The position numbers and the translations under genes were made by a program. The notes under the pieces were generated by a model, which was not told where the DNA came from, made no database searches, and worked only from the letters and a program-made list of their open reading frames with translations. From NCBI RefSeq assembly GCF_003334355.1, contig NZ_QOWP01000021.1: a stretch of DNA of 64,000 nucleotides. One strand, 5' to 3'. The stretch comes from Escherichia coli (GTDB lineage Bacteria; Pseudomonadota; Gammaproteobacteria; Enterobacterales; Enterobacteriaceae). Below, piece by piece: positions 19,293 to 55,329 of this stretch. Every line of letters starts with the position of its first letter. Positions within the stretch are counted from its first letter, which is position 1.

Positions 19293-19368
19293 GGCCCTTT
19301 AGCTCAGTGGTTAGAGCAGGCGACTCATAATCGCTTGGTCGCTGGTTCAAGTCCAGCAAGGGCCACCA
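19293..19368 (+). tRNA. ileY: tRNA with CAU anticodon (ileY-type tRNA-Ile2 / annotated Met-like), 76 nt with encoded CCA
   Basis: GGCCCTTTAGCTCAGTGGTTAGAGCAGGCGACTCATAATCGC...GGTTCAAGTCCAGCAAGGGCCACCA; 7-bp acceptor stem pairs, anticodon loop CT-CAT-AA, T-loop GGTTCAAGTCC. Confidence 0.9.
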
Positions 19369-35018: not shown

Positions 35019-37601
35019 ATGTCGTTGCGAGATTTATCTGGGTGGTTGATTAAGAATCAAGGATTCTTAAGAAAATATCAGGCATTAGTCGCTAACTCGA
35101 TAAAAGATCAATTTCCAGAGTTAAAATCAGATGTAATCCCACAGATTAGTTCTGAGGATGTCGGCTATCTTTTAACATGTGCTAGTTCTTTGGCTTTCTC
35201 AAGTGATGAGAAATGCCAAGATGCAGCCTTAAGGATTGCACAGTATTGCTTATTGAATGAAAAAAGTGAAGCAAGAAAAGATAGTGCTGCATTAATTCTT
35301 GATTCATTATCTAATAATCCAGCAATACAACTTGCTGAAAATAGGGGGTATCTTAACCCTGATTTCGAAGAAAGATTACCCTTAAAGGCTCAGTTAGAAC
35401 TAACTAAAAGAAAAATTCTATATACAATTGAAATAGATGCTGATAAGCATATTTATGCTAATAGGTTTCAATCAGAGTTTTGGGATGCGGTACAAGAAAA
35501 CTCATGGGTTAGTGTCTCTGCTCCCACCTCTGTAGGAAAATCATTTATCCTGGAATCTTGGGTGGAGCAGTTTGTAAAAAGAAATAAGAATTGCTTAGTT
35601 ATTTATATCGTACCAACAAGGGCATTGATTTCAGAAGTATATTCTGAGTTGCAAAAACGTTTGGATCCTAATTTAACAAATATAGTTAATATTCAGACAC
35701 TACCATTGAGTAATGTATACCAGAGCGAAAAATCTAATGTCTTCATATTTACACAGGAAAGATTAAATTTATTCTACAATCATTTCTCACAAATTCCAAA
35801 GATAGACGTCTTAGTTGTTGATGAAGCACACAAGATCGGTGATGGTGGAAGAGGTGTTATTCTTCAACATGTAATTGAACTGACTTGTCTAAATAACCCT
35901 GATTCAAAAGTTATCTTTGCAAGTCCTTTCACCTTAAATCCTGAAATATTGCTCAGTGATGCTCCAATATTAAAAAACAAAAGAACTATAAAAAGTGACT
36001 ATGTTACAGTTAATCAAAATTTAATATGGGTAGAACAAAAACCACGCAAGACCAAAGATTGGTTGATGTATTATTTTGCAAACGGTGAAAAACGCGAGTT
36101 AGGAAACTTTTCTTTAGAAAATGCACCATCTCCTGAAAGTAAAAGATTGCCTTTTGTAGCTCTTTGTTTAGGTAAGGGGGCTTCTGGTAACGTAGTTTAC
36201 GTAAATGGAGCCGCTGAAGCAGAATCTACTTCCAAGCTAATATCTGCAAGTATAGAAAATGAGACTGAGGATGAAGAAATTTTAGCTCTCGTTGAGCTTA
36301 GTGAGACAATTATACATAAAAATTTCGCATTAAATCGCACTCTAAAAAAGAGAGTCGCTTTTCATTATGGCAACATGCCTTTAATAATAAAGGGCGAGAT
36401 TGAACGATTGTTTAGTAAAGGTAAGATTGATTTTTTAATTTGTACCTCAACTTTAGTTGAGGGCGTAAACATGGCTTGTAAAAATATTTTTATAAGAGGC
36501 CCTAAAAAGGGTAATTCAACCCCGATGCGAGAAGAGGATTTTTGGAATCTTGCTGGCAGAGCTGGTCGTTGGGGAAAAGAATTCCAAGGTAATGTCATCT
36601 GCATCGATAGCGACAATGAAAAAATTTGGAATGGAGAGCCTCCAAAAACCAAAAAAAATATATTTATAACTCGCGCCACGGATGCTATTTCCCATGACAT
36701 GGATAAGTTGGTTTCCTATATTTTTTCAGAGCATCATTTTGGTATGTCTGAGCGGAATCCTAATCTCCAGAGTCTATTTAGTTATTTATGTTCATCATTT
36801 TATTTTTATAATGGCTTGGATAATAATCCTTACATGGAAAAGTACAATATAAAAAATATCGATGTTTTAAATGAAGCAATATTTGATGTTTTTGATTCTT
36901 TAACTTTTCCACACGAATTGGTTGTGCGGCATCCTGGTATAAGCCCGCTTTTAATGCAAAACCTTTGGGATAGATTTTCGCGGGATACAAACAAACCTGT
37001 AGAGAGATTACTGCTTTCTGAACCTGGTAGTAATGATGCGTTAGATTCATATGTATCCGCATTCTCTAGAATTAGTGATACTCTGAGTAAGAAGCTAGGT
37101 TATAATTCAAAAGGAGCTTACGTACAGGCCTTGCTAGTTTCCAAGTGGATGAAAGGTTATCCCCTAGCAAGATTGATCTCGGATAGAATAAGATATAACA
37201 AAAAGAAAAATATTGTTTTCAAAGAAGCGACTTTAATACGAGGGGTTATGAAGGATGTTGAAGAGATCGCTCGCTATCAAGCTCCAAGGCTTTTAGGATG
37301 TTATAATGATTTATTAAAAAGCTTTTATCTTTCGATAGATCGCACAGACTTAGCAAAAGATGTTGAAGATATCGGTGTTTATTTAGAACTAGGTGTAAGT
37401 TTAAAAACTCAGATTTCACTAATAGGGCTTGGCTTTTCAAGAACTGCTGCTGTAATGATTTCAGAGCTTATTCCTAATGATAGTTTAGATGAGGAAGAAT
37501 GCATTAATTGGATTAAGGACAATAAAGTTGACATGGAAGAACTGCCACAATTAGTTCAAAACGAAATACATAATATATTTCGTAACTTTTGGGTACAATA
37601 G
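35019..37601 (+). CDS. SF2 DEAH-box helicase; HamB-like candidate, component B of a Hachiman-like defense pair
   Basis: 860-aa ORF with motif I APTSVGKSF (about 35521-35547), motif II VVDEAHK (about 35815-35835), motif VI LAGRAGRWG (about 36551-36575), followed by a roughly 300-aa C-terminal extension. Confidence 0.6.
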   Translation: MSLRDLSGWLIKNQGFLRKYQALVANSIKDQFPELKSDVIPQISSEDVGYLLTCASSLAFSSDEKCQDAALRIAQYCLLNEKSEARKDSAALILDSLSNNPAIQLAENRGYLNPDFEERLPLKAQLELTKRKILYTIEIDADKHIYANRFQSEFWDAVQENSWVSVSAPTSVGKSFILESWVEQFVKRNKNCLVIYIVPTRALISEVYSELQKRLDPNLTNIVNIQTLPLSNVYQSEKSNVFIFTQERLNLFYNHFSQIPKIDVLVVDEAHKIGDGGRGVILQHVIELTCLNNPDSKVIFASPFTLNPEILLSDAPILKNKRTIKSDYVTVNQNLIWVEQKPRKTKDWLMYYFANGEKRELGNFSLENAPSPESKRLPFVALCLGKGASGNVVYVNGAAEAESTSKLISASIENETEDEEILALVELSETIIHKNFALNRTLKKRVAFHYGNMPLIIKGEIERLFSKGKIDFLICTSTLVEGVNMACKNIFIRGPKKGNSTPMREEDFWNLAGRAGRWGKEFQGNVICIDSDNEKIWNGEPPKTKKNIFITRATDAISHDMDKLVSYIFSEHHFGMSERNPNLQSLFSYLCSSFYFYNGLDNNPYMEKYNIKNIDVLNEAIFDVFDSLTFPHELVVRHPGISPLLMQNLWDRFSRDTNKPVERLLLSEPGSNDALDSYVSAFSRISDTLSKKLGYNSKGAYVQALLVSKWMKGYPLARLISDRIRYNKKKNIVFKEATLIRGVMKDVEEIARYQAPRLLGCYNDLLKSFYLSIDRTDLAKDVEDIGVYLELGVSLKTQISLIGLGFSRTAAVMISELIPNDSLDEEECINWIKDNKVDMEELPQLVQNEIHNIFRNFWVQ

Positions 37602-39565: not shown

Positions 39566-39928
39566 TGGTGGAGCTGGCGGGAGTTGAACCCGCGTCCGAA
39601 ATTCCTACATCCTCGGTACTACATGCTTAGTCAGTCTTTACATTCGCTTGCCAGCTGCGGACGGACACGCCACTAACAAACTAGCCTGATTAAGTTTTAA
39701 CGCTTCAACCCCAGGCAGGGCTTCCACGCGATCTCTTTTGGGTTTGACCTCTCTTGATCCCCGTCCTAAGAGCGGAGGCTAGGGAGAGAGGGCTCTAAGC
39801 AGGTTATTAAGCTGCTAAAGCGTAGTTTTCGTCGTTTGCGACTATTTTTTGCGGCTTTTTACGAGGCCAACCGCCCCTCGGCATGCACCTTGGGTTTCGC
39901 AAATCCCGTCGAATCCAGAATCAGCCCC
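39566..39928 (-). ncRNA. ssrA: tmRNA (SsrA), 363 nt
   Basis: Reverse complement reads GGGGCTGATTCTGGATTCGACGGGATTTGCGAAACCC...tag-peptide region...GGACGCGGGTTCAACTCCCGCCAGCTCCACCA, the E. coli tmRNA with tRNA-like ends. Confidence 0.95.
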
Positions 39929-40142
39929 AATGTGTAAAGGTAAGTATACCAGATTTATGAGCGCCATGACCAGCCTCAATGGCGTTATCGTTAAAGATTT
40001 AGCACCCATGTAGCCTGATTTTTATTCGATTAAGCAATGGGATGGCAACATTTGTGTCGGATGTGATAGCCAATAAGATGTTCATTCGCGCCGCCGGAGA
40101 GGGAGGCGCGGTGAGGAACTGGTCAATAATTGGAGTGCAGGT

Positions 40143-42064: not shown

Positions 42065-43726
42065 TTACGCTGCAAGCAGTTCTTTCGCATTCGCCAGTGT
42101 ATTACGTGTGACTTCACTGCCACCAAGCAGGCGCGCCAGCTCTTGTAACCGCGCTTTTTTATTCAGGGATTGCATATGCGTTTCTGTCATCGCACCATCG
42201 GTTTCTTTGCTGACAAAATAGTGTTGATGACCACATCCCGCGACTTGTGGCAGGTGGGTAACACACATCACCTGAGTTGATTCGCCGAGTTGACGCAGCA
42301 GTTTGCCGACAACTGCCGCTGTTGGACCGCTAATCCCTACATCCACTTCATCAAAAATCAGTGCCGGGGTTTCCATTTTACGCGCCGTGATGACCTGGAT
42401 TGCCAGTGCGATGCGGGACAATTCACCACCGGATGCGACTTTGGCAATAGGCTGCATTGGCTGACCTGGGTTGGTGGTTACCCGAAACTCAATACGATCG
42501 GCACCGTCAGCGCCCAGGTGATGCTCGTCAAATTTAACATCGATCGTAAACTGCCCATGCGGCATTGAGAGCGCATGCATACTGTCGGTGATCAGCTGTG
42601 CAAGTTCTTCTGCATATTGCTGGCGTTGTTGGTGTAATGCGCGCGCGATTTCCAGTGCCTGCTGATGATGTTTCGTTACCGCCAGCGCAAGCGTTTCTTG
42701 TGAGTCGGCCTGATCGTCCAGTTGCTGCTGTTCTTCCAGTAGCGACTGGTAATACTGTGGCAATGCCTCAGGGCTGACGTGATGTTTACGTGCCAGCGAA
42801 ATCTGTTTTGAGATGCGCTGTTCAAGTTCAAATAGTCGGTTGGGATCGAGATCCAGACGATCGCAGTAGTGGCGCAGTTCATCGCTGGCTTCAGCAATCT
42901 GGATGGTAGCTTCTTCCAGCATATCAAGTACGCCGGACAGTTTGCTGTCCATGCCAATCAATTCGCTCACCAGTTGTTTAGCCGTGTAAAGCTGACTTTG
43001 CAGGTTTGCGTCTTCACCGTCGGCCATTAATGCCAATGCATTCTGGCTGGTGGTCAGCAATTGACCGCTGTTCGCCAGACGTTTGTACTCTTCGTCGATT
43101 TGTTCAAACTCTCCGGGCTGCGGATTAAATTCGTTAAGTTCTTTTAATTGGTATTGCAGCAGTTCCGCACGGGCGGCGCGTTCCTGACTTAACTGTTGAT
43201 GATGCGCGAGGTCACGGCAGCTTTGATGCCACAACTGATAACGTGCGGTCATTTCCTGCAGTAGAGAGGTTTCATTGGCATAGCCATCAAGCAGGAATTT
43301 TTGGTGCTCAGGTTTGGTGAGTAATTGATGAGCGTGCTGACCATGGATCTGAATCAGCAACTGACCCAGTTCGCGCAGTTGTGACAGAGGAACAGCTGTA
43401 CCGTTGATGAAACCACGGGAGCGACCATCGCTGCTGATCACGCGACGAAGCAAACATTCATGCCCGTCTTCAAGCTGGTTTTCTTCCAGCCAGCGCAGAG
43501 CCGCTGGCGTATCTTTCAGAGAAAAACGGGCGCACAGGTCAGCGCGAGCAGCGCCGGTACGCACCATGTCGGCTTCAGCGCGACCACCGAGACAAAGACC
43601 GAGGGCATCTATTGCAATAGATTTACCCGCGCCGGTCTCGCCAGTTATTACGGTCATGCCGCTATGAAAATCAATCTCAAGCTCACGAACGATAGCAAAG
43701 TTGCTGATGGTCAGTTGTGCCAACAT
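42065..43726 (-). CDS. recN: DNA repair protein RecN (SMC-like ATPase)
   Basis: 553-aa [45 protein letters not shown]... (Walker A). Confidence 0.95.
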
Positions 43727-53683: not shown

Positions 53684-54049
53684 TTAATTTAATCGTATTG
53701 TGCTGGCATTTTCATCAGCCCCTTTTTGCCATACTTCATGCAGTTGGCTGGCATTTTCAACATTGTTGCAGCTGGCAGGAAAGCTTTTACCGGAAAGTCC
53801 TCGGGCATAAGTAAAATCGGTCTGGCAAGTTTTCTTTTGTCCTTCGGCATATCCTTTAAGGTATAGACCGCGATCCGCCTGTGAATCGCTAAATGCATCG
53901 TCATCTTTTATGGCGCTGCCCGATATCGCATCTTCCATACCGACATCATACCAGTCGGTGCTGGTCAAGGTTGGCGCGTGAGTATAAGGATCAATCTGAC
54001 ATCCGCTAACCAGTAAAGCCAACAAGGGGGCGATAAACTTTTTCATCAT
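53684..54049 (-). CDS. yfiL: Lipoprotein YfiL
   Basis: Start at MMKKFIAPLLALLVSGCQ (lipobox) inside ORF-track ORF 53684-54088; about 121 aa. Confidence 0.7.
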   Translation of the reverse strand: MMKKFIAPLLALLVSGCQIDPYTHAPTLTSTDWYDVGMEDAISGSAIKDDDAFSDSQADRGLYLKGYAEGQKKTCQTDFTYARGLSGKSFPASCNNVENASQLHEVWQKGADENASTIRLN

Positions 54050-54094
54050 TTCTTTCTCCTTTTTCAAAGCATAGCGGATTGTTTTCAAAGGGAG

Positions 54095-54164
54095 TGTAAA
54101 TTTATCTATACAGAGGTAAGGGTTGAAAGCGCGACTAAATTGCCTGTGTAAATAAAAATGTACG
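54095..54164. promoter_or_regulatory. aroF promoter region with TyrR boxes
   Basis: TGTAAA-tttatc-TATACA at 54095-54112 and TGTAAA-taaaaa-TGTACG at 54147-54164, matching the TyrR box consensus TGTAAA-N6-TTTACA, upstream of aroF. Confidence 0.6.
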
Positions 54165-54258
54165 AAATATGGATTGAAAACTTTACTTTATGTGTTATCG
54201 TTACGTCATCCTCGCTGAGGATCAACTATCGCAAACGAGCATAAACAGGATCGCCATC

Positions 54259-55329
54259 ATGCAAAAAGACGCGCTGAATAACGTACATATTACCGACGAA
54301 CAGGTTTTAATGACTCCGGAACAACTGAAGGCCGCTTTTCCATTGAGCCTGCAACAAGAAGCCCAGATTGCTGACTCGCGTAAAAGCATTTCAGATATTA
54401 TCGCCGGGCGCGATCCTCGTCTGCTGGTAGTATGTGGTCCTTGTTCCATTCATGATCCGGAAACTGCTCTGGAATATGCTCGTCGATTTAAAGCCCTTGC
54501 CGCAGAGGTCAGCGATAGCCTCTATCTGGTAATGCGCGTCTATTTTGAAAAACCCCGTACCACTGTCGGCTGGAAAGGGTTAATTAACGATCCCCATATG
54601 GATGGCTCTTTTGATGTAGAAGCCGGGCTGCAGATCGCGCGTAAATTGCTGCTTGAGCTGGTGAATATGGGACTGCCACTGGCGACGGAAGCGTTAGATC
54701 CGAATAGCCCGCAATACCTGGGCGATCTGTTTAGCTGGTCAGCAATTGGTGCTCGTACAACGGAATCGCAAACTCACCGTGAAATGGCCTCCGGGCTTTC
54801 CATGCCGGTTGGTTTTAAAAACGGCACCGACGGCAGTCTGGCAACAGCAATTAACGCTATGCGCGCCGCCGCCCAGCCGCACCGTTTTGTTGGCATTAAC
54901 CAGGCAGGGCAGGTTGCGTTGCTACAAACTCAGGGGAATCCGGACGGCCATGTGATCCTGCGCGGTGGTAAAGCGCCGAACTATAGCCCTGCGGATGTTG
55001 CGCAATGTGAAAAAGAGATGGAACAGGCGGGACTGCGCCCGTCTCTGATGGTAGATTGCAGCCACGGTAATTCCAATAAAGATTATCGCCGTCAGCCTGC
55101 GGTGGCAGAATCCGTGGTTGCTCAAATCAAAGATGGCAATCGCTCAATTATTGGTCTGATGATCGAAAGTAATATCCACGAGGGCAATCAGTCTTCCGAG
55201 CAACCGCGCAGTGAAATGAAATACGGTGTATCCGTAACCGATGCCTGCATTAGCTGGGAAATGACCGATGCCTTGCTGCGTGAAATTCATCAGGATCTGA
55301 ACGGGCAGCTGACGGCTCGCGTGGCTTAA
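54259..55329 (+). CDS. aroF: DAHP synthase, Tyr-sensitive (AroF)
   Basis: Start at [29 protein letters not shown] (356 aa) inside ORF-track ORF 54190-55329. Confidence 0.95.

Follow-up and report, generated by a model that had tools for sequence, protein, structure and literature searches.

A probable three-box TyrR operator at the aroF-tyrA promoter of Escherichia coli: layout, statistical support and conservation among relatives

The DNA immediately upstream of aroF in the window, by which is meant the whole 64-kb stretch of Escherichia coli DNA that was analysed, is very probably (about 95%) the three-box TyrR operator of the aroF-tyrA promoter, and none of the results obtained speaks against this assignment. 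Two strong TyrR boxes and one weak box are all contained in the 209-bp divergent intergenic region (37% G+C) between yfiL and aroF (Table 1). The aroF operator is a textbook regulatory region, already known, and finding it brings nothing new in itself. Its biology is that of the feedback control of tyrosine synthesis by TyrR, and its practical relevance is mainly to metabolic engineers who wish to remove TyrR repression.

The boxes and their place in the aroF promoter region

A strong TyrR box has been defined as one that matches the consensus at 10 or more of 12 positions, and a weak box as one with fewer matches; the G-N14-C pair is invariant and essential for binding (PMC4374768). Boxes are numbered here from the promoter outward, such that box 1 is proximal and box 3 distal. 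Compared with TGTAAA-N6-TTTACA, box 3 has a single mismatch, box 2 has two and box 1 has four, and by the published match rule boxes 3 and 2 are therefore classed as strong and box 1 as weak (PMC4374768). The starts of box 3 and box 2 lie 164 and 112 nt, respectively, 5' of the aroF ATG (54259), and both of these upstream strong boxes are located outside the core promoter, on its 5' side. Measured from centre to centre, box 3 and box 2 are 52 bp apart, equivalent to 4.95 helical turns, and box 2 and box 1 are 23 bp apart.

Table 1. Features of the aroF-tyrA region, in positions of the window
Feature	Position	Strand	Sequence, basis and remarks
Box 3 (distal, strong TyrR box)	54095..54112		TGTAAATTTATCTATACA (TGTAAA-TTTATC-TATACA); 11/12 consensus; G-N14-C present (G54096/C54111)
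Box 2 (middle, strong TyrR box)	54147..54164		TGTAAATAAAAATGTACG (TGTAAA-TAAAAA-TGTACG); 10/12 consensus; G-N14-C present (G54148/C54163)
Box 1 (promoter-proximal, weak TyrR box)	54170..54187		TGGATTGAAAACTTTACT; 8/12 consensus; G-N14-C kept (G54171/C54186)
aroF -35 hexamer, TTGAAA	54174..54179	+	Promoter scan; inside box 1
Extended -10, TGtTATCGT	54193..54201	+	Promoter scan; hexamer TATCGT at 54196-54201, preceded by TG; 16-bp spacer
Putative aroF 5' leader	54208..54258	+	Start (about 54208) inferred from the -10
aroF CDS (tyrosine-sensitive DAHP synthase)	54259..55329	+	RefSeq annotation of identical K-12 DNA, translation; first gene of operon
tyrA CDS (chorismate mutase/prephenate dehydrogenase)	55340..56461	+	Annotation, ORF list; second gene of operon
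Terminator-like hairpin	56469..56496	+	Terminator scan: 12-bp stem followed by T-rich tail; between convergent tyrA and pheA
yfiL	53684..54049	-	Annotation, minus-strand sequence; ATG 46 nt from near edge of box 3

A preliminary description of this DNA had placed TyrR-like motifs at 54095-54164, about 50 bp apart, upstream of aroF. These coordinates run exactly from the first base of box 3 to the last base of box 2, the distance measured from start to start is 52 bp, and the gene downstream is indeed aroF according to the K-12 annotation. That the motifs fit the TyrR consensus, as had been claimed, was likewise borne out: 11/12 and 10/12 matches together with G-N14-C correspond to the published definition of a strong box. 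Both of the boxes that had been counted are real; the count itself was incomplete, the weak third box at 54170-54187 having been missed.

A single sigma-70-like promoter (TTGAAA, 16-bp spacer, TATCGT) was called by the promoter scan, and its -35 hexamer is covered by box 1. Given this overlap, box 1 is likely to be the site of promoter occlusion. The comparison with the K-12 aroF promoter that the preliminary description had proposed was also made. A 1,101-bp query around the boxes, which includes the whole intergenic region, proved to be 100% identical to K-12 MG1655 and to many other E. coli, and it was found in all 5,426 of the 5,426 complete genomes searched, with at least 95% identity throughout. 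The E. coli K-12 aroF-tyrA operator and promoter are thus the same DNA, with the same genes, boxes and promoter elements and no differences. Gene tyrR is absent from the 64-kb window; MG1655, whose aroF region is identical, encodes it (b1323).

The order of genes in K-12 is yfiB, dgcN, yfiR and yfiL on the minus strand, aroF and tyrA on the plus strand, and pheA, pheL and raiA on the minus strand. Elsewhere in the window there are matches to a Phe leader at 57686-57811 (-), the RyfD sRNA at 61117-61255 (+) and a tRNA whose anticodon is CAT (19293-19368, +), as well as to C4 antisense RNA and isrK at 30594-30827 (-), the latter pair suggesting a prophage.

Statistical support, conservation and rival explanations

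The window holds 39 consensus 18-mers with three or fewer mismatches, compared to 34.8 +/- 5.8 expected in shuffles, and hence shows no enrichment. As a bare count of consensus matches is uninformative, it was replaced by a weight matrix independent of aroF, used together with shuffles. The matrix was built from ten boxes in the MG1655 promoter regions of aroL, aroG, tyrP, tyrR, mtr and aroP, each with four or fewer mismatches to the consensus and the G-N14-C pair; aroF was left out, and the tyrB promoter region was also scanned, its single match (at -246, with 4 mismatches) not being included. These training sites, which were picked by their likeness to the consensus, within promoters for which regulation by TyrR has been reported, and not by footprint coordinates, score 8.8-21.0 bits, and the three aroF boxes fall inside this range. 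A weight-matrix scan had been suggested in the preliminary description, and when it was run box 3 ranked 1st (18.7 bits) and box 2 ranked 2nd (16.05 bits) among the 63,983 positions of the window, with box 1 ranking 9th (9.7 bits; 9.72 before rounding). Among 20,000 dinucleotide-preserving shuffles of the intergenic region, 20 contained one site of at least 16.05 bits, none contained two, and none contained three sites of at least 9.72 bits. With shuffles of the whole window, the mean number of sites of at least 16.05 bits was 0.04.

Three other consensus-like sites were noted in the window. One (42985-43002; 11/12) lies within a 553-aa ORF, a second (39933-39950; 10/12) directly adjoins the 5' end of the tmRNA gene at 39566-39928 (-), and the third (36477-36494; 11/12) is found in an AT-rich stretch and is without the C of G-N14-C. 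These are probably chance matches.

Relatives were surveyed by scanning one genome per species with a DNA pattern for the AroF-specific peptide CGPCSIHDP, which yielded 120 loci, 92 of which combine an N-terminus like that of AroF with 300 nt or more of sequence upstream. Nearly every aroF promoter of the Enterobacteriaceae was found to have three boxes, near -164, -112 and -89. The 58 most similar upstream regions were then aligned without reference to the motif. In this alignment of 58 species, the half-sites average 1.50 bits per column in box 3, 1.75 in box 2 and 1.91 in box 1, and the core TGTA/TAC columns of all boxes average 1.95, compared to means of 0.48 bits per column for the DNA between boxes 3 and 2 and 0.30 for the DNA upstream of box 3. 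In the G-N14-C pairs, the G and the C of every box (six positions in total) are identical in 100% of the species. Part of the conservation of box 1 is the promoter's own, owing to its overlap with the -35 hexamer, in which T54174, T54175 and G54176 show no variation and each of A54177-A54179 is retained by 83-90% of the species; in the -10 region, T54193, G54194, T54196, A54197, G54200 and T54201 are conserved at 93-100%. Box 2 and box 3 were both present at 9 bits or more in 57 of the 57 other species, and at 12 bits or more in 54 of them.

It might be argued that the boxes are chance AT-rich palindromes, devoid of function, in a region that is itself AT-rich. The low G+C content of the intergenic region would accommodate such an origin, as would the observation that 18-mers with three or fewer mismatches are no commoner in the window than in its shuffles. 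However, two sites this good were not obtained in any of the 20,000 composition-matched shuffles, and the half-sites are near-invariant across the 58 species while the flanking DNA is not, with their spacing also constrained. On the strength of the shuffles and the conservation footprint combined, a chance origin may be regarded as excluded for practical purposes, leaving the TyrR operator as the preferred reading of the three boxes.

The constraint on spacing is seen at both intervals. Of 74 species, 68 have an offset of 23 bp between boxes 2 and 1. For boxes 3 and 2 the offset falls into two ranges: 46 species show 51-54 bp, another 11 show 61-63 bp, and no species has an intermediate value. 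About one turn of the helix separates these two Enterobacteriaceae spacing classes, which is the difference to be expected were the boxes required to lie on the same side of the DNA; this pattern in the aligned sequences suggests that the helical phasing of the distal box relative to the middle box may matter.

Other arrangements were also encountered. The distal box is located 97-98 bp from the middle box in two Erwiniaceae loci, which have a proximal box, and 151-163 bp away in most Serratia and their relatives. The Orbaceae (seven Gilliamella loci and two others) have a different aroF promoter layout, with two near-consensus boxes, near -85 and -54 relative to the ATG and separated by 31-32 bp, and a distal box at -166 to -225, without a weak box of the TGGATT type. 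In E. albertii, box 2 has decayed to 3 mismatches (9.4 bits), and boxes 1 and 3 are intact.

Recognition of the dyads by a different regulator was also considered, since the outer TGT and ACA bases are superficially like those of CRP sites (TGTGA-N6-TCACA), for example, and since a similar layout is found at aroL, for which co-regulation by TrpR has been reported (PMC5343134). Nevertheless, the intergenic region contains no match to the CRP consensus with three or fewer mismatches, and no match with seven or fewer mismatches to the TrpR operator pattern that was tried. The geometry of CRP sites is G-N12-C, and their fourth and fifth bases need to be G-A. By contrast, the conserved bases at these positions of the aroF boxes are A-A, and the boxes keep the G-N14-C that is the hallmark of TyrR (PMC4374768). 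With matches absent from the intergenic region and the geometry wrong, CRP and TrpR sites were rejected, and it is almost certain that the dyads do not serve a regulator of this kind in place of TyrR.

Regulation by TyrR and comparison with known operators

The aroF promoter is said to have three boxes, all of them needed for repression, a statement associated with Cobbett (1988), Andrews et al. (1991) and Pittard et al. (2005). Full-text searches of the open literature found no paper that states the three-box layout of aroF explicitly. Repression of aroF-tyrA by TyrR, which had been put forward in the preliminary description, is established in the literature, with tyrosine as the effector (PMC10170061; PMC11878033; PMC5343134), and it involves a TyrR hexamer that blocks the access of RNA polymerase (PMC10170061). 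In its unliganded form, TyrR binds as dimers to strong boxes only, whereas tyrosine and ATP lead to a hexamer that binds strong and weak boxes together (PMC6524683; PMC4374768). TyrR has been proposed to bind three boxes as three dimers that form a hexamer (PMC2831303). The aroF-tyrA operon is among the most conserved TyrR targets in the gamma-proteobacteria (PMC5343134), and deletion of tyrR in Y. pestis raised aroF expression 39.5-fold as measured by RNA-seq and 52-fold by qPCR (PMC4325908).

For the occupancy of the aroF boxes by TyrR, and its dependence on ligands, we infer the following course. At low tyrosine, both upstream strong boxes would be occupied, thereby nucleating TyrR and hardly affecting RNA polymerase. 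When tyrosine is abundant, the hexamer would bridge boxes 3, 2 and 1, with the approximately 34 bp between boxes 3 and 2 looped out; the filling of box 1 would then exclude RNA polymerase from the -35 region. The expected outcome is the production of less AroF and TyrA, the enzymes with which commitment to tyrosine begins. The comparative data offer a small refinement of this picture, in that a shift of the distal box in most Enterobacterales species is one of about a helical turn, which is what the looped-hexamer model predicts.

Among the known TyrR operators, that of the E. coli aroL promoter (aroL-yaiA-aroM) has a similar layout, with three boxes at -181, -128 and -105 from the ATG. Its offsets are 53 and 23 bp, compared to 52 and 23 bp at aroF. 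The order of strengths differs, however: the weak box of aroL is the middle one (4 mismatches) and its proximal box is strong (2 mismatches), whereas at aroF the proximal box is weak. Like aroF, aroL is repressed by TyrR (PMC5343134; bioRxiv 10.64898/2025.12.20.695731); unlike aroF, it is reported to be a target of TrpR as well. The E. coli tyrP and aroP promoters have paired boxes with a 23-bp offset, one strong and one weak, as do boxes 2 and 1 of aroF, and a weak box of the tyrP/aroP type depends on the neighbouring strong box (PMC4374768; PMC7142922). In contrast to aroF, these are two-box operators that do not have a distal third box, and tyrP can be activated (with phenylalanine) in addition to being repressed (PMC6524683). 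A more distant parallel is provided by NorR at norVW, where three consecutive dyad sites each bind a dimer of this AAA+ enhancer-binding-protein relative to give a hexamer on the DNA, a three-site comparison with TyrR that was drawn by the authors of PMC2831303 themselves. NorR activates a sigma-54 promoter, whereas TyrR at aroF represses a sigma-70 promoter by occlusion.

The divergent gene, the aroF leader and variation within E. coli

Box 3 might also, or instead, control the promoter of the divergent gene yfiL, in which case TyrR bound there would modulate yfiL, and the TyrR regulon would include this lipoprotein gene as a member so far unrecognised. Only 46-63 nt separate box 3 from the yfiL ATG downstream of it, and so short a distance (46 nt at the nearest) means that the promoter of yfiL has to overlap the aroF operator or lie directly next to it. 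Furthermore, the left half-site of box 3 reads TTTACA on the minus strand, resembling a -35 hexamer, and a genomic SELEX study lists a peak between aroF and yfiL for an RNA polymerase holoenzyme with a minor sigma factor (PMC5493296). On the other hand, the promoter scan called no sigma-70 promoter on the minus strand, and a search of the literature found no paper linking yfiL to TyrR. The distance between boxes 3 and 2 is kept in many species in which tblastn did not find yfiL within 1.5 kb upstream of aroF, examples with box 3 being Salmonella enterica arizonae, a Kluyvera and a Tatumella. Where yfiL is present, it may lie anywhere from about 30 to 145 nt away from box 3, yet the distance between boxes 3 and 2 is fixed or shifted by one turn. 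A role of box 3 at yfiL is thus unlikely, and its assignment to the aroF operator is preferred. Only weak candidates for a sigma-70 promoter of yfiL were seen by eye on the minus strand, namely TATGCT at 54073-54068 and TAAATT at 54104-54099; the first of these is the yfiL-strand reading of a conserved block, AAGCATAGC (54068-54076), which may be the -10 element of yfiL.

Conservation also extends into the aroF leader, which averages 1.28 bits, an unusually high value across the 58 Enterobacteriaceae-like species. A predicted hairpin, UCCUC-GCU-GAGGA, whose stem is conserved and whose loop varies, occupies 54209-54221 at the putative 5' end; it is followed by a near-invariant block, ACTATCGCAAACGAG, at 54225-54239 (58 species) and a Shine-Dalgarno AGGA at 54247-54250. 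Folding of the leader predicted this small 5' hairpin and a stability no greater than that of shuffles (z = 0.88). Strong pairing between GcvB and aroF has been predicted (-28 kcal/mol), and reporter assays showed no regulation (PMC11878033). The block at 54225-54239 could possibly be an undescribed element of post-transcriptional control.

Within E. coli, the operator region is far more polymorphic than its surroundings, as judged by a 131-bp query (54085-54215) compared with the 1.1-kb region. This shorter query matched with 80-90% identity in 813 of the 5,426 genomes and with 90-95% identity in 1,542. When five divergent E. coli alleles were compared with the window, their differences were almost all found in 54087-54158, clustering in the N6 spacers of boxes 3 and 2, between these boxes and in the DNA around them. 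There are half-site substitutions as well, all with G-N14-C kept, examples being TATACA/TGTACG (box 3) and CGTAAA (box 2). None of the five alleles shows a change in the right half of box 2, in box 1 or in the promoter, and in the leader one allele has a single-base difference. A further record, titled Escherichia coli strain SCPM-O-B-8794, has an aroF upstream region that is only 77% identical to that of the window, and its box 2 and box 3 sequences differ from the window's.
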